Positions 3,290 to 35,092 are shown, counted from the stretch's first letter. The stretch is 40,052 nt of DNA from a virus (IMGVR_UViG_646206259_000001); one strand, 5' to 3'. The notes: a model not told the origin generated them from the letters alone. A program made the numbers and translations.

Positions 3290-6200
3290 TCAACTGATAC
3301 TGATACCGGCTGTAGATTTCTTCATCACAACAACAAGAAGGTCGCTGATACTGGTCGTTGGCGTCCAGTTATTAGCACCATATGAAGAAACATTGAAAGT
3401 CAGGGTGACATGGCCGTGTCCGGCAGGCATATCAATGACTGATGAAAATACCCTGCTGACATCCGTCGCGGGTTGCTGAAAGATTTCCTGTCCGTTCTTC
3501 AGTACCTGCAGCTTACAGGTTGAATACCAGTATGACTGTTGGTTGTTGCTGTTGAAGTTTTCATGCTTACCCCCACGAAACAGAACGGGGGGGACTACTA
3601 TCTGACGGTCAAAAGCCTGGTCATCGTACACAGTGACCGTTATTGTACCGCTGGCATAACTGCCATTTCTCGGAAAGGCTTTTCCCACCGTTTTGACAAT
3701 ATCACCTTCAATCTGGTTAGCTGACAGTTTTCCCAGAATCCGACAGTTCTGATTAATCGTGACGTTGTTGAGCGTCCCGGAGTTCGCGTTCACGTTACCG
3801 CTGATATCCGCATTTTTCGCAGAAAGTCGACCATCAGGTGTCAGTGAAAACGTTGGGGGATTGCCACCGCTGGTAATGGTGGGAGCCGTCAGATATTTCA
3901 GGAACACTTCGTTCATGAATATCTGATCGCCCTGCCCAACAAACATCGGCTTTGTGTTGCCATTCGCAGGATTAATCATCGCAATCCTGTCCGCCGCCAG
4001 CAGCACCTGACTCTGCATACCGTCAGGAGTATTCTCAACACCGGCACCAATACCCGCGATATAAAGGCGTCCGTCCTGCATCTGCTGCAGCTTCACAGCC
4101 CACATGCTGTTCAGGTTATTATTTGTATCAACCTGAACCTTCTGTATCTGCTGGATCGCTGCACTCTGGTCTTCCAGTTTCTTATTGACGGTCTGCGTGA
4201 TTTCATTGCTGACACCCGTAATGGACGTCCTGATTTCAGCCAGGTCAGGCGCAAGCTGACCGTTATCAATCTGCGTCCACAACTCCTGAGCCAGATGGGT
4301 TTTCCCTATCTCTCCTTTGAAAAAATCCAGATAGCCGGATGCATCATCACTCGGCTGGCCAACAGCCTCCACAAATGCCGATTTGCCAACGGTGTTCACA
4401 CTGCGGATGTAAAAATAATAATCATGGCCCGGTTTGATATTGATACTGGCGGCTATCCAGTACAGCGCCGTGCCAAGATAGCGTGCTGTGGTTTCAACCT
4501 GCCTGATATCCGCAATCCGCTTTTCCGAGAACCAGAACTCAAACTGTACCGTCGGATCATAAACCGCAAGATGCGGCGTGGCGGTTATCTGAAAATACCC
4601 CGGTGTCAGCTCAATCTGCGACGGCGCTGCCGGTGCGGCAATCCGGAACGATACCGATNNNNNNNNNNNNNNNNNNNNNNNNNNNNNNNNNNNNNNNNNN
4701 NNNNNNNNNNNNNNNNNNNNNNNNNNNNNNNNNNNNNNNNNNNNNNNNNNNNNNNNNNNNNNNNNNNNNNNNNNNNNNNNNNNNNNNNNNNNNNNNNNNN
4801 NNNNNNNNNNNNNNNNNNNNNNNNNNNNNNNNNNNNNNNNNNNNNNNNNNNNNNNNNNNNNNNNNNNNNNNNNNNNNNNNNNNNNNNNNNNNNNNNNNNN
4901 NNNNNNNNNNNNNNNNNNNNNNNNNNNNNNNNNNNNNNNNNNNNNNNNNNNNNNNNNNNNNNNNNNNNNNNNNNNNNNNNNNNNNNNNNNNNNNNNNNNN
5001 NNNNNNNNNNNNNNNNNNNNNNNNNNNNNNNNNNNNNNNNNNNNNNNNNNNNNNNNNNNNNNNNNNNNNNNNNNNNNNNNNNNNNNNNNNNNNNNNNNNN
5101 NNNNNNNNNNNNNNNNNNNNNNNNNNNNNNNNNNNNNNNNNNNNNNNNNNNNNNNNNNNNNNNNNNNNNNNNNNNNNNNNNNNNNNNNNNNNNNNNNNNN
5201 NNNNNNNNNNNNNNNNNNNNNNNNNNNNNNNNNNNNNNNNNNNNNNNNNNNNNNNNNNNNNNNNNNNNNNNNNNNNNNNNNNNNNNNNNNNNNNNNNNNN
5301 NNNNNNNNNNNNNNNNNNNNNNNNNNNNNNNNNNNNNNNNNNNNNNNNNNNNNNNNNNNNNNNNNNNNNNNNNNNNNNNNNNNNNNNNNNNNNNNNNNNN
5401 NNNNNNNNNNNNNNNNNNNNNNNNNNNNNNNNNNNNNNNNNNNNNNNNNNNNNNNNNNNNNNNNNNNNNNNNNNNNNNNNNNNNNNNNNNNNNNNNNNNN
5501 NNNNNNNNNNNNNNNNNNNNNNNNNNNNNNNNNNNNNNNNNNNNNNNNNNNNNNNNNNNNNNNNNNNNNNNNNNNNNNNNNNNNNNNNNNNNNNNNNNNN
5601 NNNNNNNNNNNNNNNNNNNNNNNNNNNNNNNNNNNNNNNNNNNNNNNNNNNNNNNNNNNNNNNNNNNNNNNNNNNNNNNNNNNNNNNNNNNNNNNNNNNN
5701 NNNNNNNNNNNNNNNNNNNNNNNNNNNNNNNNNNNNNNNNNNNNNNNNNNNNNNNNNNNNNNNNNNNNNNNNNNNNNNNNNNNNNNNNNNNNNNNNNNNN
5801 NNNNNNNNNNNNNNNNNNNNNNNNNNNNNNNNNNNNNNNNNNNNNNNNNNNNNNNNNNNNNNNNNNNNNNNNNNNNNNNNNNNNACTGGTCTGTGGTGCT
5901 GTCCGGCGTCATCCTGCGCATCCGGATATTAAACGGGCGCGGCGGCAGGTTATCCACCACCACCGAGGCCAGATACTGCGAGGTGGTTTTGCCTTTAATG
6001 GTGATGTCTTTTTCCGTCACCCAGCCACCGTTACGCTGTATCTGAACCAGCAGGCGGACTTCCGACGGATTCCGGTCCCCCTTTGAGGTGGTTTCCACCA
6101 GTGCCTGCACACCGAAGGTAAAGCGCAGACGGTCGATGTTTGCAGACGTGATGGTCCGGGTAATCGGCGTGTCGTACTTCACTTCCGTACCCAGCACCGT

Positions 6201-7023: not shown

Positions 7024-7959
7024 NNNNNNNNNNNNNNNNNNNNNNNNNNNNNNNNNNNNNNNNNNNNNNNNNNNNNNNNNNNNNNNNNNNNNNNNNNNNN
7101 NNNNNNNNNNNNNNNNNNNNNNNNNNNNNNNNNNNNNNNNNNNNNNNNNNNNNNNNNNNNNNNNNNNNNNNNNNNNNNNNNNNNNNNNNNNNNNNNNNNN
7201 NNNNNNNNNNNNNNNNNNNNNNNNNNNNNNNNNNNNNNNNNNNNNNNNNNNNNNNNNNNNNNNNNNNNNNNNNNNNNNNNNNNNNNNNNNNNNNNNNNNN
7301 NNNNNNNNNNNNNNNNNNNNNNNNNNNNNNNNNNNNNNNNNNNNNNNNNNNNNNNNNNNNNNNNNNNNNNNNNNNNNNNNNNNNNNNNNNNNNNNNNNNN
7401 NNNNNNNNNNNNNNNNNNNNNNNNNNNNNNNNNNNNNNNNNNNNNNNNNNNNNNNNNNNNNNNNNNNNNNNNNNNNNNNNNNNNNNNNNNNNNNNNNNNN
7501 NNNNNNNNNNNNNNNNNNNNNNNNNNNNNNNNNNNNNNNNNNNNNNNNNNNNNNNNNNNNNNNNNNNNNNNNNNNNNNNNNNNNNNNNNNNNNNNNNNNN
7601 NNNNNNNNNNNNNNNNNNNNNNNNNNNNNNNNNNNNNNNNNNNNNNNNNNNNNNNNNNNNNNNNNNNNNNNNNNNNNNNNNNNNNNNNNNNNNNNNNNNN
7701 NNNNNNNNNNNNNNNNNNNNNNNNNNNNNNNNNNNNNNNNNNNNNNNNNNNNNNNNNNNNNNNNNNNNNNNNNNNNNNNNNNNNNNNNNNNNNNNNNNNN
7801 NNNNNNNNNNNNNNNNNNNNNNNNNNNNNNNNNNNNNNNNNNNNNNNNNNNNNNNNNNNNNNNNNNNNNNNNNNNNNNNNNNNNNNNNNNNNNNNNNNNN
7901 NNNNNNNNNNNNNNNNNNNNNNNNNNNNNNNNNNNNNNNNNNNNNNNNNNNNNNNNNNN
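7024..7959. other. N-run where H C-terminus, M, L, K and I N-terminus are expected
   Basis: 936 consecutive n; shorter than the ~2.1 kb the missing genes need. Confidence 1.
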
Positions 7960-10568
7960 GTGAAGACAAATTCACCACGGTGAACAATCCCCGCTGGCTC
8001 ATATTTGCCGCCGGTTCCCGTAAATCCCCCGGTCGCAAAACGGAATTTCGCCGCAGCGGCCTGAATGGCTGTACCGCCTGACGCGGATGCTCCACCACTG
8101 GCAGCACCGCCAATGGCGCTGCCGATACTCCCGACAATCCCCACCATTGCCTGCTTAAGCAGAATTTCTGTCATCATGGACAGCACGGAACGGGTGAAGC
8201 TGCGCCAGTTCTGCTCACTGCCGGTCAGCATCGCCGCCATATTCTGTGCAATACCATCAAAGGTCTGCGTGGCTGCACTTTTAACCTGCGACATACTGTC
8301 CGTGGCGCTCTCTTCCCACTCACTCCAGCCGGACTTCAGGCCTGCCATCCAGCTCCCGCGAAGCTGGTCTTCAGCCGCCCAGGTCTTTTTCTGCTCTGAC
8401 ATGACGTTATTCAGCGCCAGCGGATTATCGCCATACTGTTCCTTCAGGCGCTGTTCCGTGGCTTCCCGTTCTGCCTGCCGGTCAGTCAGCCCCCGGCTTT
8501 TCGCATCAATGGCGGCCCGTTTTGCCCGTTGCTGCTGTGCGAATTTATCCGCCTGCTGCGCCAGCGCGTTCAGGCGCTCCTGATACGTAACCTTGTCGCC
8601 AAGTGCAGCCAGCTGGCGTTTGTACTCCAGCGTCTCATCTTTATGCGCCAGCAGGGATTTCTCCTGTGCAGACAGCTGGCGACGTTGCGCCGCCTCCTCC
8701 AGTACCGCGAACTGACTCTCCGCCTTCCACAAATCCCGGCGCTGCTGGCTGATTTTCTCATTCGCTCCGGCATGCTTCTCCAGCGTCCGGAGTTCTGCCT
8801 GAAGCGTCAGCAGGGCGGCATGAGCACTGTCTTCCTGACGATCGCCCGCAGACACCTTCACGCCGGACTGTTTCGGCTTTTTCAGCGTCGCTTCATAATC
8901 CTTTTTCGCCGCCGCCATCAGCGTGTTGTAATCCGCCTGCAGGATTTTCCCGTCTTTCAGTGCCTTGTTCAGTTCTTCCTGACGGGCGGTATATTTCTCC
9001 AGCGGCGTCTGCAGCCGTTCGTAAGCCTTCTGCGCCTCTTCGGTATATTTCAGCCGTGACGCTTCGGTATCGCTCTGCTGCTGCGCATTTTTGTCCTGTT
9101 GAGTCTGCTGCTCAGCCTTCTTTCGGGCGGCTTCAAGCGCAAGACGGGCCTTTTCACGATCATCCCAGTAACGCGCCCGCGCTTCATCGTTAACAAAATA
9201 ATCATCCTTGCGCAGATTCCAGATGTCGTCTGCTTTCTTAAACGCAGCCTCTGCCTTAATCAGCATCTCCTGCGCGGTATCAGGACGACCAATATCCAGC
9301 ACCGCATCCCACATGGATTTGAATGCCCGCGCTGTCCTGTCTGCCCAGGTCTCCAGCGTGCCCATGTTCTCTTTCAGGCGGCGGGTCTGGTCATCAAACC
9401 CTTTCGTTGCGGCTTCGTTCGCCGCCTGCAATGCCCCGGCTTCATCGCCGGAACGCTGCAACTGAGCAACATACGCAATCTGCTCCGCCGTCACGTTATG
9501 GAACTGGCGCGCCATCGCCGTCAGCCCCGACGTCGGGTCAGTGGTCAGCTTCCCGAAGGCTTCAGCGACCTTGTCCACCTCCACGCCGGATGCAGAGGAG
9601 AAACGCGCCACACTCTGGCTGATGGACGCAATCTGAGCCTCACCGCTTACCCCCGCCTTAACCAGTGCACTGAGTGACTCGCTGGTCTGGTTAAACGTCA
9701 GCCCTGCCGCCTGCCCGGCTCTGGACAGGACCAGCATACGATCTGCCGTCAGACCTGACTGATGACCGGAAAGGACCAGCGTTTTGTTGAAATCGGACAG
9801 GGTTGAGTTACCCTGATACCAGGCATACGCCAGCGCACCGGTCNNNNNNNNNNNNNNNNNNNNNNNNNNNNNNNNNNNNNNNNNNNNNNNNNNNNNNNNN
9901 NNNNNNNNNNNNNNNNNNNNNNNNNNNNNNNNNNNNNNNNNNNNNNNNNNNNNNNNNNNNNNNNNNNNNNNNNNNNNNNNNNNNNNNNNNNNNNNNNNNN
10001 NNNNNNNNNNNNNNNNNNNNNNNNNNNNNNNNNNNNNNNNNNNNNNNNNNNNNNNNNNNNNNNNNNNNNNNNNNNNNNNNNNNNNNNNNNNNNNNNNNNN
10101 NNNNNNNNNNNNNNNNNNNNNNNNNNNNNNNNNNNNNNNNNNNNNNNNNNNNNNNNNNNNNNNNNNNNNNNNNNNNNNNNNNNNNNNNNNNNNNNNNNNN
10201 NNNNNNNNNNNNNNNNNNNNNNNNNNNNNNNNNNNNNNNNNNNNNNNNNNNNNNNNNNNNNNNNNNNNNNNNNNNNNNNNNNNNNNNNNNNNNNNNNNNN
10301 NNNNNNNNNNNNNNNNNNNNNNNNNNNNNNNNNNNNNNNNNNNNNNNNNNNNNNNNNNNNNNNNNNNNNNNNNNNNNNNNNNNNNNNNNNNNNNNNNNNN
10401 NNNNNNNNNNNNNNNNNNCCGGTTCATTGACTGTTCAACGACTGCCGCTGTTTTTTTCGCATCACTTTCCGTACCGGAAAAATGACGCCTGACTCTGGCC
10501 ATCTGCTCGTCAAATCTGGCTGCATCCAGACTTAAATCAACGACCAGATCGCCTACCGGTTCAGCCAT
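7960..10568 (-). CDS. H: Tail tape measure protein H (C-terminus in N-run 7024-7959; internal N-run 9844-10418)
   Basis: MAEPVGDLVVDLSLDAARFDEQMARVRRHF... at the N-terminus and long coiled-coil region ending ...GGKYEPAGIVHRGEFVF match lambda gpH. Confidence 0.9.
9844..10418. other. N-run inside H
   Basis: 575 consecutive n. Confidence 1.
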
Positions 10569-15255: not shown

Positions 15256-16812
15256 NNNNNNNNNNNNNNNNNNNNNNNNNNNNNNNNNNNNNNNNNNNNN
15301 NNNNNNNNNNNNNNNNNNNNNNNNNNNNNNNNNNNNNNNNNNNNNNNNNNNNNNNNNNNNNNNNNNNNNNNNNNNNNNNNNNNNNNNNNNNNNNNNNNNN
15401 NNNNNNNNNNNNNNNNNNNNNNNNNNNNNNNNNNNNNNNNNNNNNNNNNNNNNNNNNNNNNNNNNNNNNNNNNNNNNNNNNNNNNNNNNNNNNNNNNNNN
15501 NNNNNNNNNNNNNNNNNNNNNNNNNNNNNNNNNNNNNNNNNNNNNNNNNNNNNNNNNNNNNNNNNNNNNNNNNNNNNNNNNNNNNNNNNNNNNNNNNNNN
15601 NNNNNNNNNNNNNNNNNNNNNNNNNNNNNNNNNNNNNNNNNNNNNNNNNNNNNNNNNNNNNNNNNNNNNNNNNNNNNNNNNNNNNNNNNNNNNNNNNNNN
15701 NNNNNNNNNNNNNNNNNNNNNNNNNNNNNNNNNNNNNNNNNNNNNNNNNNNNNNNNNNNNNNNNNNNNNNNNNNNNNNNNNNNNNNNNNNNNNNNNNNNN
15801 NNNNNNNNNNNNNNNNNNNNNNNNNNNNNNNNNNNNNNNNNNNNNNNNNNNNNNNNNNNNNNNNNNNNNNNNNNNNNNNNNNNNNNNNNNNNNNNNNNNN
15901 NNNNNNNNNNNNNNNNNNNNNNNNNNNNNNNNNNNNNNNNNNNNNNNNNNNNNNNNNNNNNNNNNNNNNNNNNNNNNNNNNNNNNNNNNNNNNNNNNNNN
16001 NNNNNNNNNNNNNNNNNNNNNNNNNNNNNNNNNNNNNNNNNNNNNNNNNNNNNNNNNNNNNNNNNNNNNNNNNNNNNNNNNNNNNNNNNNNNNNNNNNNN
16101 NNNNNNNNNNNNNNNNNNNNNNNNNNNNNNNNNNNNNNNNNNNNNNNNNNNNNNNNNNNNNNNNNNNNNNNNNNNNNNNNNNNNNNNNNNNNNNNNNNNN
16201 NNNNNNNNNNNNNNNNNNNNNNNNNNNNNNNNNNNNNNNNNNNNNNNNNNNNNNNNNNNNNNNNNNNNNNNNNNNNNNNNNNNNNNNNNNNNNNNNNNNN
16301 NNNNNNNNNNNNNNNNNNNNNNNNNNNNNNNNNNNNNNNNNNNNNNNNNNNNNNNNNNNNNNNNNNNNNNNNNNNNNNNNNNNNNNNNNNNNNNNNNNNN
16401 NNNNNNNNNNNNNNNNNNNNNNNNNNNNNNNNNNNNNNNNNNNNNNNNNNNNNNNNNNNNNNNNNNNNNNNNNNNNNNNNNNNNNNNNNNNNNNNNNNNN
16501 NNNNNNNNNNNNNNNNNNNNNNNNNNNNNNNNNNNNNNNNNNNNNNNNNNNNNNNNNNNNNNNNNNNNNNNNNNNNNNNNNNNNNNNNNNNNNNNNNNNN
16601 NNNNNNNNNNNNNNNNNNNNNNNNNNNNNNNNNNNNNNNNNNNNNNNNNNNNNNNNNNNNNNNNNNNNNNNNNNNNNNNNNNNNNNNNNNNNNNNNNNNN
16701 NNNNNNNNNNNNNNNNNNNNNNNNNNNNNNNNNNNNNNNNNNNNNNNNNNNNNNNNNNNNNNNNNNNNNNNNNNNNNNNNNNNNNNNNNNNNNNNNNNNN
16801 NNNNNNNNNNNN
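15256..16812. other. N-run where D N-terminus, C/Nu3 and B C-terminus are expected
   Basis: 1557 consecutive n. Confidence 1.
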
Positions 16813-18462: not shown

Positions 18463-19902
18463 NNNNNNNNNNNNNNNNNNNNNNNNNNNNNNNNNNNNNN
18501 NNNNNNNNNNNNNNNNNNNNNNNNNNNNNNNNNNNNNNNNNNNNNNNNNNNNNNNNNNNNNNNNNNNNNNNNNNNNNNNNNNNNNNNNNNNNNNNNNNNN
18601 NNNNNNNNNNNNNNNNNNNNNNNNNNNNNNNNNNNNNNNNNNNNNNNNNNNNNNNNNNNNNNNNNNNNNNNNNNNNNNNNNNNNNNNNNNNNNNNNNNNN
18701 NNNNNNNNNNNNNNNNNNNNNNNNNNNNNNNNNNNNNNNNNNNNNNNNNNNNNNNNNNNNNNNNNNNNNNNNNNNNNNNNNNNNNNNNNNNNNNNNNNNN
18801 NNNNNNNNNNNNNNNNNNNNNNNNNNNNNNNNNNNNNNNNNNNNNNNNNNNNNNNNNNNNNNNNNNNNNNNNNNNNNNNNNNNNNNNNNNNNNNNNNNNN
18901 NNNNNNNNNNNNNNNNNNNNNNNNNNNNNNNNNNNNNNNNNNNNNNNNNNNNNNNNNNNNNNNNNNNNNNNNNNNNNNNNNNNNNNNNNNNNNNNNNNNN
19001 NNNNNNNNNNNNNNNNNNNNNNNNNNNNNNNNNNNNNNNNNNNNNNNNNNNNNNNNNNNNNNNNNNNNNNNNNNNNNNNNNNNNNNNNNNNNNNNNNNNN
19101 NNNNNNNNNNNNNNNNNNNNNNNNNNNNNNNNNNNNNNNNNNNNNNNNNNNNNNNNNNNNNNNNNNNNNNNNNNNNNNNNNNNNNNNNNNNNNNNNNNNN
19201 NNNNNNNNNNNNNNNNNNNNNNNNNNNNNNNNNNNNNNNNNNNNNNNNNNNNNNNNNNNNNNNNNNNNNNNNNNNNNNNNNNNNNNNNNNNNNNNNNNNN
19301 NNNNNNNNNNNNNNNNNNNNNNNNNNNNNNNNNNNNNNNNNNNNNNNNNNNNNNNNNNNNNNNNNNNNNNNNNNNNNNNNNNNNNNNNNNNNNNNNNNNN
19401 NNNNNNNNNNNNNNNNNNNNNNNNNNNNNNNNNNNNNNNNNNNNNNNNNNNNNNNNNNNNNNNNNNNNNNNNNNNNNNNNNNNNNNNNNNNNNNNNNNNN
19501 NNNNNNNNNNNNNNNNNNNNNNNNNNNNNNNNNNNNNNNNNNNNNNNNNNNNNNNNNNNNNNNNNNNNNNNNNNNNNNNNNNNNNNNNNNNNNNNNNNNN
19601 NNNNNNNNNNNNNNNNNNNNNNNNNNNNNNNNNNNNNNNNNNNNNNNNNNNNNNNNNNNNNNNNNNNNNNNNNNNNNNNNNNNNNNNNNNNNNNNNNNNN
19701 NNNNNNNNNNNNNNNNNNNNNNNNNNNNNNNNNNNNNNNNNNNNNNNNNNNNNNNNNNNNNNNNNNNNNNNNNNNNNNNNNNNNNNNNNNNNNNNNNNNN
19801 NNNNNNNNNNNNNNNNNNNNNNNNNNNNNNNNNNNNNNNNNNNNNNNNNNNNNNNNNNNNNNNNNNNNNNNNNNNNNNNNNNNNNNNNNNNNNNNNNNNN
19901 NN
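18463..19902. other. N-run where Nu1, terminase large subunit A and W N-terminus are expected
   Basis: 1440 consecutive n; shorter than the ~2.5 kb expected. Confidence 1.
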
Positions 19903-22020: not shown

Positions 22021-22597
22021 CTATCTGCACTGCTCATTAATATACTTCTGGGTTCCTTCCAGTTGTTTTTGCATAGTGATCAGCCTCTNNNNNNNNNNNN
22101 NNNNNNNNNNNNNNNNNNNNNNNNNNNNNNNNNNNNNNNNNNNNNNNNNNNNNNNNNNNNNNNNNNNNNNNNNNNNNNNNNNNNNNNNNNNNNNNNNNNN
22201 NNNNNNNNNNNNNNNNNNNNNNNNNNNNNNNNNNNNNNNNNNNNNNNNNNNNNNNNNNNNNNNNNNNNNNNNNNNNNNNNNNNNNNNNNNNNNNNNNNNN
22301 NNNNNNNNNNNNNNNNNNNNNNNNNNNNNNNNNNNNNNNNNNNNNNNNNNNNNNNNNNNNNNNNNNNNNNNNNNNNNNNNNNNNNNNNNNNNNNNNNNNN
22401 NNNNNNNNNNNNNNNNNNNNNNNNNNNNNNNNNNNTATGTCAGTAATTACCGCGTTCGCCAGCGTCAGTTCTCTGGCATTTTTGTCGCGCTGGGCTTTGT
22501 AGGTAATGGCGTTATCACGGTAATGATTAACAGCCCATGACAGGCAGACGATGATGCAGATAACCAGAGCGGAGATAATCGCGGTTACTCTGTTCAT
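22021..22597 (-). CDS. Rz: Spanin Rz (i-spanin), interrupted by N-run 22089-22435; Rz1 presumably inside the N-run
   Basis: N-terminus [38 protein letters not shown]... and C-terminus ...[21 protein letters not shown] match lambda Rz, but the two parts are in different frames. Confidence 0.8.
22089..22435. other. N-run inside Rz
   Basis: 347 consecutive n. Confidence 1.
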
Positions 22598-29780: not shown

Positions 29781-29812
29781 AATGACTCCTGTGGATTGAT
29801 CCAGTAATGACC

Positions 29813-30109
29813 TCAGAATTCCATCTGGATTTGTTCAGAACGCTCGGTTGCCGCCGGGCGTTTTTTATTGGTGAGTCCATCAAGCGCATACTTAAAAGCC
29901 CTGCTAATCGGACTGATGTCTGATGCCATTCCGAAAGCACACAAGACCGAAGCAATAAATCTCCAGTCCGTTCTGCTTATCTTCGATTCATGACAGCCAA
30001 TCATCTTTGCCAGACCGCGCTGGGTAATAGCTGACAGATTGATAAGTAAATCTGTTTCTGCGCGATCAACGTCACGCTGTGATAGTTTGCTGTAACTTGT
30101 TCTTTCCAT
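29813..30109 (-). CDS. cII: Transcriptional activator cII (chimeric: lambda-like C-terminus, divergent N-terminal domain)
   Basis: C-terminal ...LTNKKRPAATERSEQIQMEF identical to lambda cII; N-terminal ~75 aa differ. Confidence 0.75.
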   Translation of the reverse strand: MERTSYSKLSQRDVDRAETDLLINLSAITQRGLAKMIGCHESKISRTDWRFIASVLCAFGMASDISPISRAFKYALDGLTNKKRPAATERSEQIQMEF

Positions 30110-30250: not shown

Positions 30251-30466
30251 TTAAGCGGCTTTGTGTTCCGGCGGGAACACGTCATCAAGACTGACTTTTG
30301 CGCCTAACTTGTTTAGGCACGCAACAAGAGCACGGCATGTTTTAAGGTCTGGGAAGCGACGACCAGATTCCCAATGTCCGATAGCTCCCTGTGTGCATCC
30401 AACTGCCTTAGCAAGTGTTGTTTGAGAGATATTCAGTGACTCTCGATATTTTCGTAGGTTGCTCAT
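30251..30466 (-). CDS. cro: Cro-like repressor (HTH_XRE, 71 aa)
   Basis: MSNLRKYRESLNISQTTLAKAVGCTQGAIGHWESGRRFPDL... HTH; GGAGGG RBS; divergent from cI; upstream part of the 128-aa track ORF discarded. Confidence 0.8.
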   Translation of the reverse strand: MSNLRKYRESLNISQTTLAKAVGCTQGAIGHWESGRRFPDLKTCRALVACLNKLGAKVSLDDVFPPEHKAA

Positions 30467-30577
30467 ATGCCCTCCATAGTAAACACGAATAAAAAAATAC
30501 AATATGTACTTTGCGAATACAAGTAAAAATACACATTGTGCATGGATGGTTCCAGTACAGAGCGTAATAATAAGGAC
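30467..30577. promoter_or_regulatory. Immunity operator/promoter region (OR, divergent PR and PRM); individual operators not resolved
   Basis: 111-bp AT-rich divergent intergenic region between the cro and cI starts; imperfect dyads; motif ATATGTACTTT also present, inverted, near the PL candidate. Confidence 0.55.
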
Positions 30578-31237
30578 ATGAAAATGAAATGGTATGAACT
30601 GGCTAGATCCAGAATGAAAGAGCTCGGCATAACTCAAGAGAAGTTAGCCGAAGAGCTAGGTATGACGCAGGGTGGGATTGGACACTGGTTGCGCGGATCT
30701 CGTCATCCATCTCTTAGTGATATTGGTGTGGTGTTTAAATACCTTGGTATTGATAACATATCATTCAACCACGACGGGACATTTTCACCTGTTGGCGAAT
30801 ACTCATCGGCCCCAGTTAAAAAACAATATGAGTACCCTGTTTTTTCTCATGTTCAGGCTGGGATGTTCTCTCCAGAACTCAGAACCTTTACCAAAGGCGA
30901 TGCGGAGAGATTGGTAAGCACAACCAAAAAAGCCAGTGACTCTGCATTCTGGCTTGAGGTTGAAGGTAACTCAATGACCGCACCAACAGGTTCCAAACCC
31001 AGCTTTCCTGACGGGATGTTAATTCTGGTTGACCCTGAGCAAGCTGTTGAGCCCGGCGATTTCTGCATAGCCAGACTTGGTGGTGATGAATTTACCTTCA
31101 AGAAACTGATCAGGGATAGCGGTCAGGTGTTTCTACAGCCACTAAACCCACAATACCCAATGATCCCATGCAATGAGAGTTGTTCCGTTGTGGGGAAAGT
31201 TATCGCCAGCCAATGGCCTGAAGAGACGTTTGGGTGA
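30578..31237 (+). CDS. cI: CI repressor (HTH N-domain plus LexA-like S24 autocleavage domain)
   Basis: HTH ...[23 protein letters not shown]...; Ala-Gly cleavage site (VQAGMF), catalytic Ser (GNSMTAP) and Lys (FTFKKLIRD); AAGGA RBS. Confidence 0.85.
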
Positions 31238-31276
31238 TGAAACCACTTTTATCTACAATTTACAGGGCGGTAAACA

Positions 31277-31834
31277 TTGGCAAAAATAGATGATTATCAG
31301 CCAAGCCAAGTAGAAGTTGATAAAGTACTTTATTGTAAAAAAATAGTTAACTTTTCTGGCGTTAAATGGAAACAGAAACCAAGTCGCTCTGATATGTGGC
31401 TACAAGCCCATATCATCCCCTTGGATGAGGATTGTATACCTATACAAGGGCTAAAGTTTGAACTGAAATGGAAACCAGATCAGGATTCAGAACCTGATGA
31501 CCCGATTTCTTACCCTAAAATAAATATTATTGCTTTCTATCATAACAAGAGGGTTTTCGCGGTAGATACCTATCACTTTGACAAACACACGAATAGTTAC
31601 AAGGTCGATCATCCGAAGTACCAAGATATCATTTACGGTGCTCACTACCATGTATACTATGAAGAAGCTGGATACTATAGTGATAGAATAGCGTTTCCAA
31701 TCGAAGATGACATAAACCCAGATGACCTGGTAGGGTATTGGAATTACTTCTGTAAACATCTGAACATAACTTACTCTGGGAGAATACCTTTACCGCTTGA
31801 AGATGAGTCGGGGCAAATGGGGTTTGGAATATGA
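31277..31834 (+). CDS. Hypothetical protein A (185 aa) of the cI-linked module; Tyr/Asp-rich, no TM segment; TTG start predicted, first ATG at 31394
   Basis: ORF 39 nt downstream of cI, AT-rich; stop overlaps the start of the next gene (ATGA at 31831-31834). Confidence 0.55.
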   Translation: MAKIDDYQPSQVEVDKVLYCKKIVNFSGVKWKQKPSRSDMWLQAHIIPLDEDCIPIQGLKFELKWKPDQDSEPDDPISYPKINIIAFYHNKRVFAVDTYHFDKHTNSYKVDHPKYQDIIYGAHYHVYYEEAGYYSDRIAFPIEDDINPDDLVGYWNYFCKHLNITYSGRIPLPLEDESGQMGFGI

Positions 31835-32583
31835 TGTGCTCAACAGTGATCTCACAACTAGGTTTCGAATGCCATCCAATAGGCAAGACCTTGAGAATTA
31901 TCAGTCCATTCACTTACTGTGATGATGGAGAGCATGTCGGTGCCTTTATCCGTGAAGTCAATGGTAGGTATTTAGTTAGTGACAGATGCGATGCCTTAAT
32001 GAATATGGAGGCAAGAGGGATCTCGCTTACCAAAAAACGACTTGATGAGATACGACAATTACTGCTTAAAGAAGGCGCAGAACTCAATGCTCGAGGAGAA
32101 ATCATTGCTTGGGCAACAGAAAAGGATGTCGGTGCGATTACATCGAACATAATTAGAGCTGGTATACTCGCATCAACTTTGTCGTTAGACTGGTATCAGC
32201 CAGTTCAAGCTGAAAAGTTTGAAAGTATGGTTATTGATTATCTATATCACACAGAGCTTAGAGACGCACTTTCTCTTCGTGAAAACGTATATGGCTTGAG
32301 TGGACATCAAATTACCGTCCCTGTAACAATAAAAACCGACATACCTAAATACGTTTTTACATCAAGCGTGAAACACGGAGGAAGCTGGAATAGTGCTTAC
32401 TCATTGCTTGGGAAACTAATTGATCTTAAAGCTTCAAGTGAGGAGTATAACAACAGATTTGTTGTTATAGACAGCGAAGCAATTGGTGATCAAATGCAAC
32501 AACTCTCCTTACTCTTCCATGAATCAAGCCAAGTTCTACCATTCTCCAAAAGAGAGACTTGGGTTAAGAGACTTGCAGCATAA
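31831..32583 (+). CDS. Hypothetical protein B (250 aa) of the cI-linked module; soluble, no recognised motif
   Basis: ATG at 31831 translationally coupled to protein A; followed 5 nt later by a terminator. Confidence 0.6.
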   Translation: MMCSTVISQLGFECHPIGKTLRIISPFTYCDDGEHVGAFIREVNGRYLVSDRCDALMNMEARGISLTKKRLDEIRQLLLKEGAELNARGEIIAWATEKDVGAITSNIIRAGILASTLSLDWYQPVQAEKFESMVIDYLYHTELRDALSLRENVYGLSGHQITVPVTIKTDIPKYVFTSSVKHGGSWNSAYSLLGKLIDLKASSEEYNNRFVVIDSEAIGDQMQQLSLLFHESSQVLPFSKRETWVKRLAA

Positions 32584-32588
32584 TACAA

Positions 32589-32610
32589 CCCGGCCTCAGC
32601 GCCGGGTTTT
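32589..32610 (+). terminator. Rho-independent terminator ending the cI operon (t-imm equivalent)
   Basis: CCCGGC-CTCAGC-GCCGGG stem-loop followed by TTTTCTTT. Confidence 0.7.
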
Positions 32611-32802
32611 CTTTGCCTCACGTTCGCCCACCTAAAAACACATAACCAATTATATTTATTGAAAAATAAATAGATGCAACCCACTAAACCACGCAATTCT
32701 GATCTCTCCTTACATCGCCGAGGCAATACATCCACGCTAAAAAACAACACTATTAAATACAAAGCGTTATAAAAAACCACGCCAACTTACAACAAATTGT
32801 AT

Positions 32803-33019: not shown

Positions 33020-33292
33020 ATGTCCAGAAAAACAGAATTTAAAGGCACCGCAGCTTCTCGCCGTAGAGCTCGTCGCGCAAATCTGCAAAGTCAGGAGGCG
33101 ATCAGCTCCGACAAGCTACACAGGCCAACCCCTTCACGAGTGGTCTTGCAATGCAAGCTCAAACCAGCAATGAGAGCAGAAGTGATAACTCTGACAACGT
33201 TGACCAGAAAATATGAAGGTTCAACTTGTCTTCCGAACGTAGCTCTTTACGCGGCAGGCTACCGGAAATCAAAACAACTGACGGCGAGATGA
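33020..33292 (+). CDS. N: Antiterminator N (P22 gp24-like), 90 aa
   Basis: N-terminal arginine-rich motif (TAASRRRARRANLQ) and C-terminal ...LPNVALYAAGYRKSKQLTAR resembling P22 N; strong GGGAGGA RBS. Confidence 0.75.
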   Translation: MSRKTEFKGTAASRRRARRANLQSQEAISSDKLHRPTPSRVVLQCKLKPAMRAEVITLTTLTRKYEGSTCLPNVALYAAGYRKSKQLTAR

Positions 33293-33308: not shown

Positions 33309-33890
33309 TTACTTGTTTTTGCCATGCTTATCCTGAGCGATAAGTTCATCCATAAGGCTGTCTGCCTTCCCGGCAAACCTAATGTAGCACTCATGTCTAT
33401 AGCTTTCAGGGATAACGAAACGGTCGGTATCAGGATATCCAACAGCAGGAGGCCTTCGAACGAGGAGTCCTTTTTTGAGCAATGAAATTGATTCATGAGC
33501 GCCCTTTTCCGTTTGTAGCTGGTTATTAGCGGCTACAGCGAATGCCAAATACGCTCTTTCTCCAAGAGTTAACGAATCAAACAAATCTTGCACATATTTT
33601 TCTTCTTTAGATTTGCGCTTCTGAGCAGCGAATACCTCAATTCTTTCAGTCACAGCGTGATAAGCGGAATTAACAACGCCGTTAAGCACATAGCTAACGC
33701 AAAACAACAGGATGTAATACATCCAGTAATGAGGAAGGATTTCTGGATTATGCAGGTTTATCCATTCTTTTACGCTTACCGGCATAACAATAATCAATAT
33801 GATCAGGATGATTAGCATATGAATCAACTGTTTAAGTGTCATTCCTTGCAGGAAAAAATGCATTAGTTCCTGCCACCATGAGTTGTTCAT
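33309..33890 (-). CDS. sieB: Superinfection exclusion protein SieB-like (193 aa, membrane)
   Basis: Two hydrophobic segments in the N-terminal half; size and position between N and ral match lambda sieB; sequence match from memory is weak. Confidence 0.5.
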   Translation of the reverse strand: MNNSWWQELMHFFLQGMTLKQLIHMLIILIILIIVMPVSVKEWINLHNPEILPHYWMYYILLFCVSYVLNGVVNSAYHAVTERIEVFAAQKRKSKEEKYVQDLFDSLTLGERAYLAFAVAANNQLQTEKGAHESISLLKKGLLVRRPPAVGYPDTDRFVIPESYRHECYIRFAGKADSLMDELIAQDKHGKNK

Positions 33891-34855: not shown

Positions 34856-34927
34856 GCGCGGCGTTACCGCATACCAATTACGCTTCACTCGAGGCGTTTT
34901 TCGTTATGTATAAATAAGGAGCACACC

Positions 34928-35092
34928 ATGCAATATGCCATTGCAGGGTGGCCTGTTGCTGGCTGCCCTTCCGAATCTTTACTTGAACGAATCACCCGTA
35001 AATTACGTGACGGATGGAAACGCCTTATCGACATACTTAATCAGCCAGGAGTCCCAAAAAATGGATCAAACAATTATGGCTATCCAGACTAA
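34928..35092 (+). CDS. cIII: CIII protein (FtsH inhibitor), 54 aa
   Basis: Hand translation [54 protein letters not shown] matches lambda CIII; absent from the ORF track (<60 aa). Confidence 0.85.
   Translation: MQYAIAGWPVAGCPSESLLERITRKLRDGWKRLIDILNQPGVPKNGSNNYGYPD

Follow-up and report, generated by a model that had tools for sequence, protein, structure and literature searches.

Genes A and B, which directly follow the cI-type repressor of a lambdoid immunity region, are a genuine two-gene cassette with sharp boundaries and wide conservation, in the slot occupied by rexA and rexB in lambda, as judged from comparisons of the genes, their flanks and their protein families. By analogy with other systems, and with a probability that we put at about one half, A-B would be a lysogen-expressed, toxin-antitoxin (TA)-like abortive-infection or exclusion module directed against superinfecting phages. 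The window in which the cassette lies is a viral stretch of 40,052 nucleotides (IMGVR_UViG_646206259_000001), and all coordinates below are counted from its first letter.

The immunity region is marked by a cro-like gene divergent from the repressor, the latter annotated as a LexA-family protein or as cI in Nissle, ev017 and PhiR57_1 and presumed to be the first gene of the lysogenic operon. Genes A and B lie downstream on the same strand (Table 1). The initial annotation had described them as two reading frames of these lengths that share an ATGA and begin 39 nt past the cI stop, which is what the sequence holds, and RefSeq/PGAP calls the identical two genes, with the protein accessions WP_001062368.1 and WP_000968518.1, including the TTG start of A behind a weak ribosome-binding site. 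The 39 N-terminal residues of A that precede its first in-frame ATG are kept across genera, indicating that the TTG start is real, and starting at a codon other than ATG is a trait of the family, 11 of 13 homologous loci using GTG or TTG. A terminator had also been placed directly after B, and one is found there, with a predicted fold of -17 kcal/mol (z = -3.5 against shuffled sequences), but its hairpin begins 3 nt rather than 5 nt past the B stop codon and spans 32587-32608 rather than 32589-32610.

Table 1. Features of the immunity region and of the A-B cassette in the window
Feature	Coordinates	Strand	Basis
cro-like HTH gene	30251..30466	(-)	Annotation of the identical locus in Nissle 1917 (RefSeq) transferred to the window, and ORF list; marks the immunity region
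cI-type repressor	30542..31237 (ORF also with 30536 start)	(+)	Pfam Peptidase_S24, E 1.3e-28; HTH_3, E 2.1e-10
Exchangeable cassette	31236..32580	(+)	blastn break-points against YYZ-2008, lambda lysogen, HicAB, DUF2335 and two-unknown-gene loci
cI-A spacer, 39 nt	31238..31276	(+)	Sequence; without terminator; weak ribosome-binding site GGGCGG before TTG
Gene A	31277..31834	(+)	185 aa, TTG start
ATGA stop/start overlap (translational coupling)	31831..31834	(+)	ORF coordinates, sequence
Gene B	31831..32583	(+)	250 aa, start inside ATGA
Rho-independent terminator, t-imm equivalent	32587..32616	(+)	8-bp GC-rich hairpin 32587-32608 plus T-run
Antiterminator N gene	33020..33292	(+)	PhiR57_1 annotation mapped onto the window, and ORF list; far edge of the cI-N variable slot

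This layout argues for expression of A and B together with cI in the lysogen, because no terminator follows cI, the pair has no convincing promoter of its own and a common terminator closes the operon. Folding of the cI-A spacer gave nothing stable or terminator-like (z = +0.42); a consensus scan of the region for a promoter of A or B returned promoter-like sites at no more than the chance rate, the sole match in the spacer being within that expectation; and an Rfam search of the cassette yielded no RNA family. The GC content of A and B together is 39.6%, compared with 42.6-45.8% in the immediate flanks and 48.7% in the non-N window. The AT-richness reported in the initial annotation is thus present, but it is a modest dip and the word 'markedly' was too strong.

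The boundaries of the cassette were defined by comparison with prophages that have both flanks but other cargo, the cassette being the stretch that lacks homology to them. Every such comparison broke at the same two places, at 31233-31238 on the stop codon of cI and at 32577-32587 on the hairpin of the terminator. For a lambda lysogen the right-hand homology starts at the last bases of rexB, and the terminator itself, ∼91% identical to what immediately follows rexB in lambda, is part of the conserved flank. This homology, reaching to the cI stop on one side and to the terminator past rexB on the other, establishes that A-B sits in the slot of rexAB, as had been proposed, and that the terminator belongs to the conserved backbone. 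A survey of what occupies this slot in related prophages, a check named beforehand, revealed a varied cargo. Between identical flanks, E. coli prophages carry lambda rexA-rexB, a HicA toxin with a DUF1902 protein, a DUF2335 protein, or two overlapping unknown genes, each of the last three in a different prophage. YYZ-2008 matches the window up to 31235 and again from 32581, with a different gene of ∼175 aa (gp25) in between. E. coli strain FDAARGOS_772 has a diverged pair, A'-B', in which A' is 40% identical to A and B' 51% identical to B; the pair follows a lambda-type cI and takes exactly the position of rexAB. Among the E. coli genomes searched with the cI 3' end, the cassette and the N flank, 237 carry the whole stretch and many carry both flanks only; many Stx phages have the same cI allele (99% identity) and no A-B. 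The presence of different cargo between the same flanks makes the A-B segment an exchangeable cassette by sequence comparison, and the prophages with identical flanks and varied contents (rexAB, A-B, A'-B', HicAB, DUF2335 and others) offer a ready panel with which to study the purpose of the cI-N slot.

At 99% identity or higher, the 1.3-kb segment was found in 241 of 5,426 complete E. coli genomes (about 4%), always on the chromosome and once per genome. It is 100% identical in the probiotic strain Nissle 1917, the quality-control strain ATCC 25922, the type strain ATCC 11775, the UPEC strain NU14, APEC O18 and others, and is also present in phages ev017, ev207, PhiR57_1 and PhiR63_2 and in one Stx1a phage; A and B are annotated as 'hypothetical' or 'DUF1828 domain-containing' in every record. 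The four named phages are viable, indicating that the module does not block the phage that carries it.

Beyond E. coli, the family of A is rare, amounting to 21 clusters in a set of 5.8 billion proteins and to only 20 matches (E <= 0.001) in a profile search of 1.84 billion representatives, and that of B is somewhat larger (124 clusters found with a profile). The two genes nonetheless travel together. In every locus fetched with enough flanking DNA, a homologue of A stands directly upstream of B in the same direction, with a stop-start overlap of 4 nt in most loci and of 13 nt in the Pantoea/FDAARGOS_772 variant. A scan of species-representative genomes, with strict search patterns, gave 8 loci only. 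Across the 22 distinct loci assembled in all, the pair lies downstream of a prophage repressor and in its direction in 20, with either no gene or one to three small genes between them. The repressor-linked loci come from E. coli (two cI alleles), Izhakiella, Yersinia, two Providencia, Xenorhabdus, Pantoea, Thorsellia, Aeromonas (two repressor alleles), a Klebsiella Rac-like prophage with an HTH-only repressor, several Pseudomonas aeruginosa prophages, other Pseudomonas, Azotobacter and metagenomic prophages; Pseudomonas phage phPA-G also has a homologue of A, present but unannotated. The repressors beside the pair range from near-identical to undetectably similar and the phage backbones are unrelated, which shows that the module was inserted or kept repeatedly at the position downstream of the repressor. 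One of the two exceptions (L030) has an ambiguous context. The other, a distant pair (23% identity), stands in a chromosomal neighbourhood that is not a prophage, which points to a self-contained unit. No homologue of B was found in 72,556 plasmid records.

The initial annotation had recognised no family in either protein, a statement that does not hold for B. Over residues 26-110, B scores 33.5 bits against Pfam DUF1828 (threshold 22), a domain that all 32 family members examined match, and it aligns along almost its whole length with the PADLOC model PDC-M24B (E 4.7e-10, residues 2-249 against profile positions 4-254 of 256), which 29 of 32 diverse B-family members also match. The AlphaFold2 model (pLDDT 83, pTM 0.56) is consistent with two domains, an N-terminal DUF1828 domain (about residues 1-120) and a C-terminal domain (about 128-250) with a predicted restriction-endonuclease-like fold. 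The order of elements in residues 128-213, alpha-beta-beta-beta-alpha-beta, fits the restriction-endonuclease core, a mapping that we drew from the element order. A canonical PD-(D/E)xK site was considered for this domain and rejected, since the alignment of 32 family sequences has no conserved acid or lysine on strands 2 and 3; nuclease activity of B is accordingly doubtful. What the 32 sequences do conserve, down to 22% identity, are C3, C14, D51, G63, G89, E90, F130, G155, S157, G158, H159, W186, G194 and D198, all invariant, and D54, K195 and R209, nearly so.

The far end of B is also conserved. Full-length homologues, down to 23% identity, end in -AA in 96 of 110 cases (87%) and in -LAA in 69 of 110 (63%). 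The sequence -LAA is the ending of the SsrA tag and corresponds to ClpX 'C-motif 1', a classic recognition signal for ClpXP, and on this likeness we hypothesize that B may be labile through ClpXP; it counts against a degron that, in the model of B, the -LAA end lies within a predicted helix.

Protein A is predicted to be a cytoplasmic, beta-rich protein (model pLDDT 82, pTM 0.81), with a fold for which no match was found in PDB or BFVD. Invariant in its family are D97, H104, N106, G121, H123 and H125, the polar ones among them forming a cluster (D/H/N/HxH) that looks like a metal or catalytic site, and distant relatives retain K22, W31, R92, D97, H104, N106, G121, H123, H125, F158 and P173. 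The C-terminal tail is disordered and still conserved, as SGQxGxxL in A and as SGQxGLxL or GQGxLL in relatives. Similarity to described families is confined to the His-rich core, through which A and several relatives weakly match DUF6978 and PDC-M24A only. A itself scores 22 bits against Pfam DUF6978, below the threshold of 29.6, and E 4.8e-4 against PDC-M24A over residues 104-163 only, and a few other members of the family match three different PDC-M24A models at about 1e-4 to 7e-3. These matches hint weakly that A is a distant relative of DUF6978/PDC-M24A. For both proteins, profile searches of PDB gave nothing meaningful (best E 0.2-0.9) and NCBIfam gave no useful match. A and B are both mildly acidic, neither has a signal peptide, and, in agreement with the initial annotation, neither has a transmembrane segment, the maximum Kyte-Doolittle hydropathy over 19 residues being 0.45 for A and 1.19 for B, compared with 2.39 for RexB.

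The label of defence candidate that the initial annotation gave to this pair is strengthened by the comparative evidence, above all by the rexAB slot, the linkage to repressors, the matches to PDC-M24 and the precedent of the repressor-linked BstA. In the model that we propose, A and B would be transcribed with cI from the maintenance promoter of the lysogen as far as the common terminator, A being poorly translated from its non-ATG start and B through its coupling to A. As long as the lysogen is healthy, the two cytoplasmic proteins would keep each other inactive in a complex; an infecting phage would disturb their balance and thereby free a toxic activity. This TA-like reading draws on the poor start of A, the coupled translation and tag-like end of B, the polar cluster of A, the degenerate nuclease fold of B and the occurrence of HicAB as alternative cargo of the slot. 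The sequence comparisons show the gene layout, the cassette boundaries, the equivalence with the rexAB slot, the constant pairing, the link to repressors and the features of fold and motif; co-transcription with cI, an A-B complex, lability of B to ClpXP, toxicity and an anti-phage effect are inferred.

Which protein would do what is much less certain than the module's proposed role. B may be the labile regulator or sensor and A the effector enzyme, a polarity suggested by the SsrA-like -LAA of B and its loss of canonical catalytic residues, on one side, and by the invariant Asp/His/Asn/His-x-His cluster of A, on the other. Although still doubtful, this is more likely than the reverse arrangement, which is conceivable and in which B would be a non-canonical nuclease effector and A its sensor. 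Tentatively, and with clearly less conviction than for the module as such, we can imagine A-B as the first member open to characterisation of a defence family that is found almost only in repressor operons of gamma-proteobacterial temperate phages, in which A is an effector with a previously unseen fold and B a degenerate nuclease-fold sensor, turned over by ClpXP, whose infection-induced loss or engagement frees A. The absence from plasmids and the near-confinement to repressor operons are unlike most defence systems and would fit a lysogeny-specific role equally well.

Such a role could take the form of a helper that tunes the lysis-lysogeny switch, induction or excision, for instance through a DNA-binding nuclease-fold protein acting at the prophage, and the near-exclusive linkage to repressors and the XisH-like fold lend it some interest. 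We nevertheless consider it decidedly unlikely. Many Stx phages manage with the same cI allele and no module, and the module works with unrelated repressors, which argues that it does not depend on one particular switch; a further pair stands clear of any prophage; and both proteins are mildly acidic, which is atypical of DNA binders. Somewhat easier to entertain, if still improbable, is a prophage-addiction TA pair that has no role against other phages and stabilises the prophage or lysogeny, cells that lose it being killed or arrested. Such a pair would likewise have overlapping genes, with a poor start on the first and -LAA at the end of the second, and HicAB is other cargo of the slot. An integrated prophage is rarely lost, however, so that the benefit would be small, and both rexAB, the best-known occupant of the slot, and the repressor-linked BstA act against other phages. 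Many TA systems are anti-phage as well, and to that extent an addiction pair and the exclusion module that we favour overlap.

The strain distribution could be read differently, as that of a gene for host fitness or virulence that has nothing to do with phages. B2-type strains (Nissle, NU14, APEC O18, ATCC 25922) are enriched for the module, and the 241 complete genomes that carry it include many extra-intestinal pathogens. One prophage lineage explains this distribution, though, and bacteria that live in soil or with insects carry this pair in their prophages too; both products are moreover cytoplasmic, with neither signal peptide nor membrane segment, and we find the idea hard to credit. Lambda RexB is reported to damp ClpXP proteolysis, and B, which shares the slot of rexB and whose homologues so often (87%) end in -LAA or -AA, might by extension be an abundant ClpXP substrate or decoy that damps proteolysis in the lysogen with A as cofactor. 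This chain is entirely inferential and leaves the invariant residues of A and the conserved SGH/D198 site of B unexplained, and to us it is the most far-fetched of these alternatives.

A screen of E. coli prophage defences was reportedly carried out by Brenes and Laub (Cell Host Microbe 33:1004, 2025), and the two ECOR13-hosted phages met in this analysis may stem from that study, which is a guess on our part. A literature search on DUF1828, DUF6978, PDC-M24, the protein accessions and the phage names, which did not extend to that screen, returned nothing functional and no test of the module. The 'pr' ('phage repressor') of Nissle (Bury et al., 2018) was examined as possible evidence on the module and set aside, as its primers map to a cII-family ORF (29813..30109) and not to cI, A or B.

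If A-B proves to be a defence system, it would add a new protein family to the few phage exclusion genes that are expressed with the repressor (rexAB, BstA) and would open a way to the function of DUF1828, of DUF6978 and of PDC-M24, a PADLOC candidate. Its presence in widely used strains and in plaque-forming phages (ev017, PhiR57_1) makes tests simple, and we expect their outcome to bear on the phage susceptibility of a strain in therapeutic use, Nissle 1917.

Comparison with known systems places A-B near several of them and within none that has been characterised. The C-terminal fold of B recalls PD-(D/E)xK effectors such as Can2/Card1 and NucC, from which it differs in that D...(D/E)xK is not conserved and B keeps S157-G-H159, K195, D198 and R209 instead; its N-terminal domain is DUF1828, with an order of strands and helices putatively unlike that of a CARF or SAVED sensor, and neither a CARF nor a SAVED domain was detected in A or B. 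Type II TA systems with the toxin first, in the style of HigBA or HicAB, are similar in having two small, co-directional, overlapping genes with a weak first start and a protease-tag-like second end, and another E. coli prophage has HicA with DUF1902 in this very slot. In contrast to these systems, A-B lacks any known toxin or antitoxin domain, any DNA-binding domain that could serve autoregulation and any recognisable promoter of its own, being laid out to be driven by the repressor promoter.

Among the PADLOC models, A and B match only PDC-M24A and PDC-M24B respectively. The two genes, adjacent and co-directional, stand in the gene order of PDC-M24 (A DUF6978-like, B DUF1828-like), and the match of B is full-length, whereas that of A is weak (E about 5e-4) and limited to the C-terminal 60 residues, and the A-B branch is confined to prophage repressor operons. 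On these profile matches, A-B would be a distant branch of PDC-M24, itself only a PADLOC candidate for which our literature search found no published test, with B a clear member and A a marginal one.

BstA of Salmonella phage BTP1 is an abortive-infection defence protein encoded directly downstream of the prophage repressor, in a synteny that is kept across diverse Gram-negative prophages and for which expression with the repressor has been proposed (PMC8585504). A-B shares this repressor-locus synteny. It differs in consisting of two genes, whereas BstA is one protein accompanied by a DNA element for self-immunity, aba, and in matching, of the PADLOC models, only those of PDC-M24. With RexAB, finally, A-B has in common the slot, as defined by flank homology, the number of genes, the strand of cI and a layout for expression in the lysogen. 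The proteins themselves are unlike RexA and RexB, as the initial annotation had it: BLASTP gave nothing below E = 0.9, folds and gene sizes differ, and RexB is a multi-pass membrane protein, whereas A and B have no membrane component. By this comparison, A-B stands in the place of RexAB without being a member of that system.

The gene pair A-B, which lies between the repressor gene cI and the antiterminator gene N, in the place of lambda rexAB, has relatives at several other loci, one of which is in E. coli strain FDAARGOS_772. Here a lambda-immunity prophage with lambda-type cI and cro carries a diverged pair, A'-B', where rexAB would be, with 40% and 51% identity to A and B respectively and a 13 nt overlap. 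This is a natural allelic replacement, and of use for experiments. In Pseudomonas phage VB_PaD_phPA-G, a homologue of A lacking annotation in the GenBank record precedes an annotated B homologue, and the two genes share the ATGA overlap seen in A-B. Prophages of Izhakiella and Providencia have a conserved 113-aa ORF (MAFNDIE...) between the repressor and A. A 518-bp contig (L020) in an actinomycete assembly, labelled Actinomadura rugatobispora, also encodes the A/B junction, 82% identical to that of E. coli at the protein level; most likely it is a contaminant of this assembly.

Other cargo occupies the cI-N slot elsewhere. O157 Stx phages have an uncharacterised gene there that encodes about 175 aa (e.g. 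gp25 of phage YYZ-2008), and strain N767 has an uncharacterised overlapping pair (88 and 216 aa). Both are candidates for further genes of the same kind as A-B.

Features of the window and comparison loci (L numbers; own coordinates)
Feature	Sequence	Coordinates	Strand	Basis or position
N runs	window	4659-5884, 7024-7959, 9844-10418, 15256-16812, 18463-19902, 22089-22435
cII-family ORF / pr primer region	window	29786-30109 (ORF 29813..30109)	-	primer mapping
LexA-like cI	window	30542..31237	+
SieB-type superinfection-exclusion gene	window	33309-33890	-	just past N
lambda cIII thermoregulator element	window	34915-34973	+	Rfam, 88.5 bits, E 3e-21
A'-B', FDAARGOS_772	L022	1585-2891
A homologue, phPA-G	L004	3420-4004
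113-aa ORF	L013	5044-5385
113-aa ORF	L015	5053-5394
113-aa ORF	L016	5052-5393
gp25, YYZ-2008	L003	5189-5725
88-aa + 216-aa pair, N767	L024	1964-2868

The six N runs (6,081 bases in total) hide some of the sequence in the half of the window that carries the late genes, and composition statistics have no meaning inside them.

The 'phage repressor' (pr, EcN_1294) cloned from the Nissle prophage lowered plating of lambda and Stx phages about 200-fold (Bury et al., 2018). Mapped onto the window, the pr primers of that study, for qPCR and cloning, target the cII-family ORF and not the LexA-like cI. The SieB-type gene lies beside the cassette, and the same prophage therefore has a second, known exclusion function.
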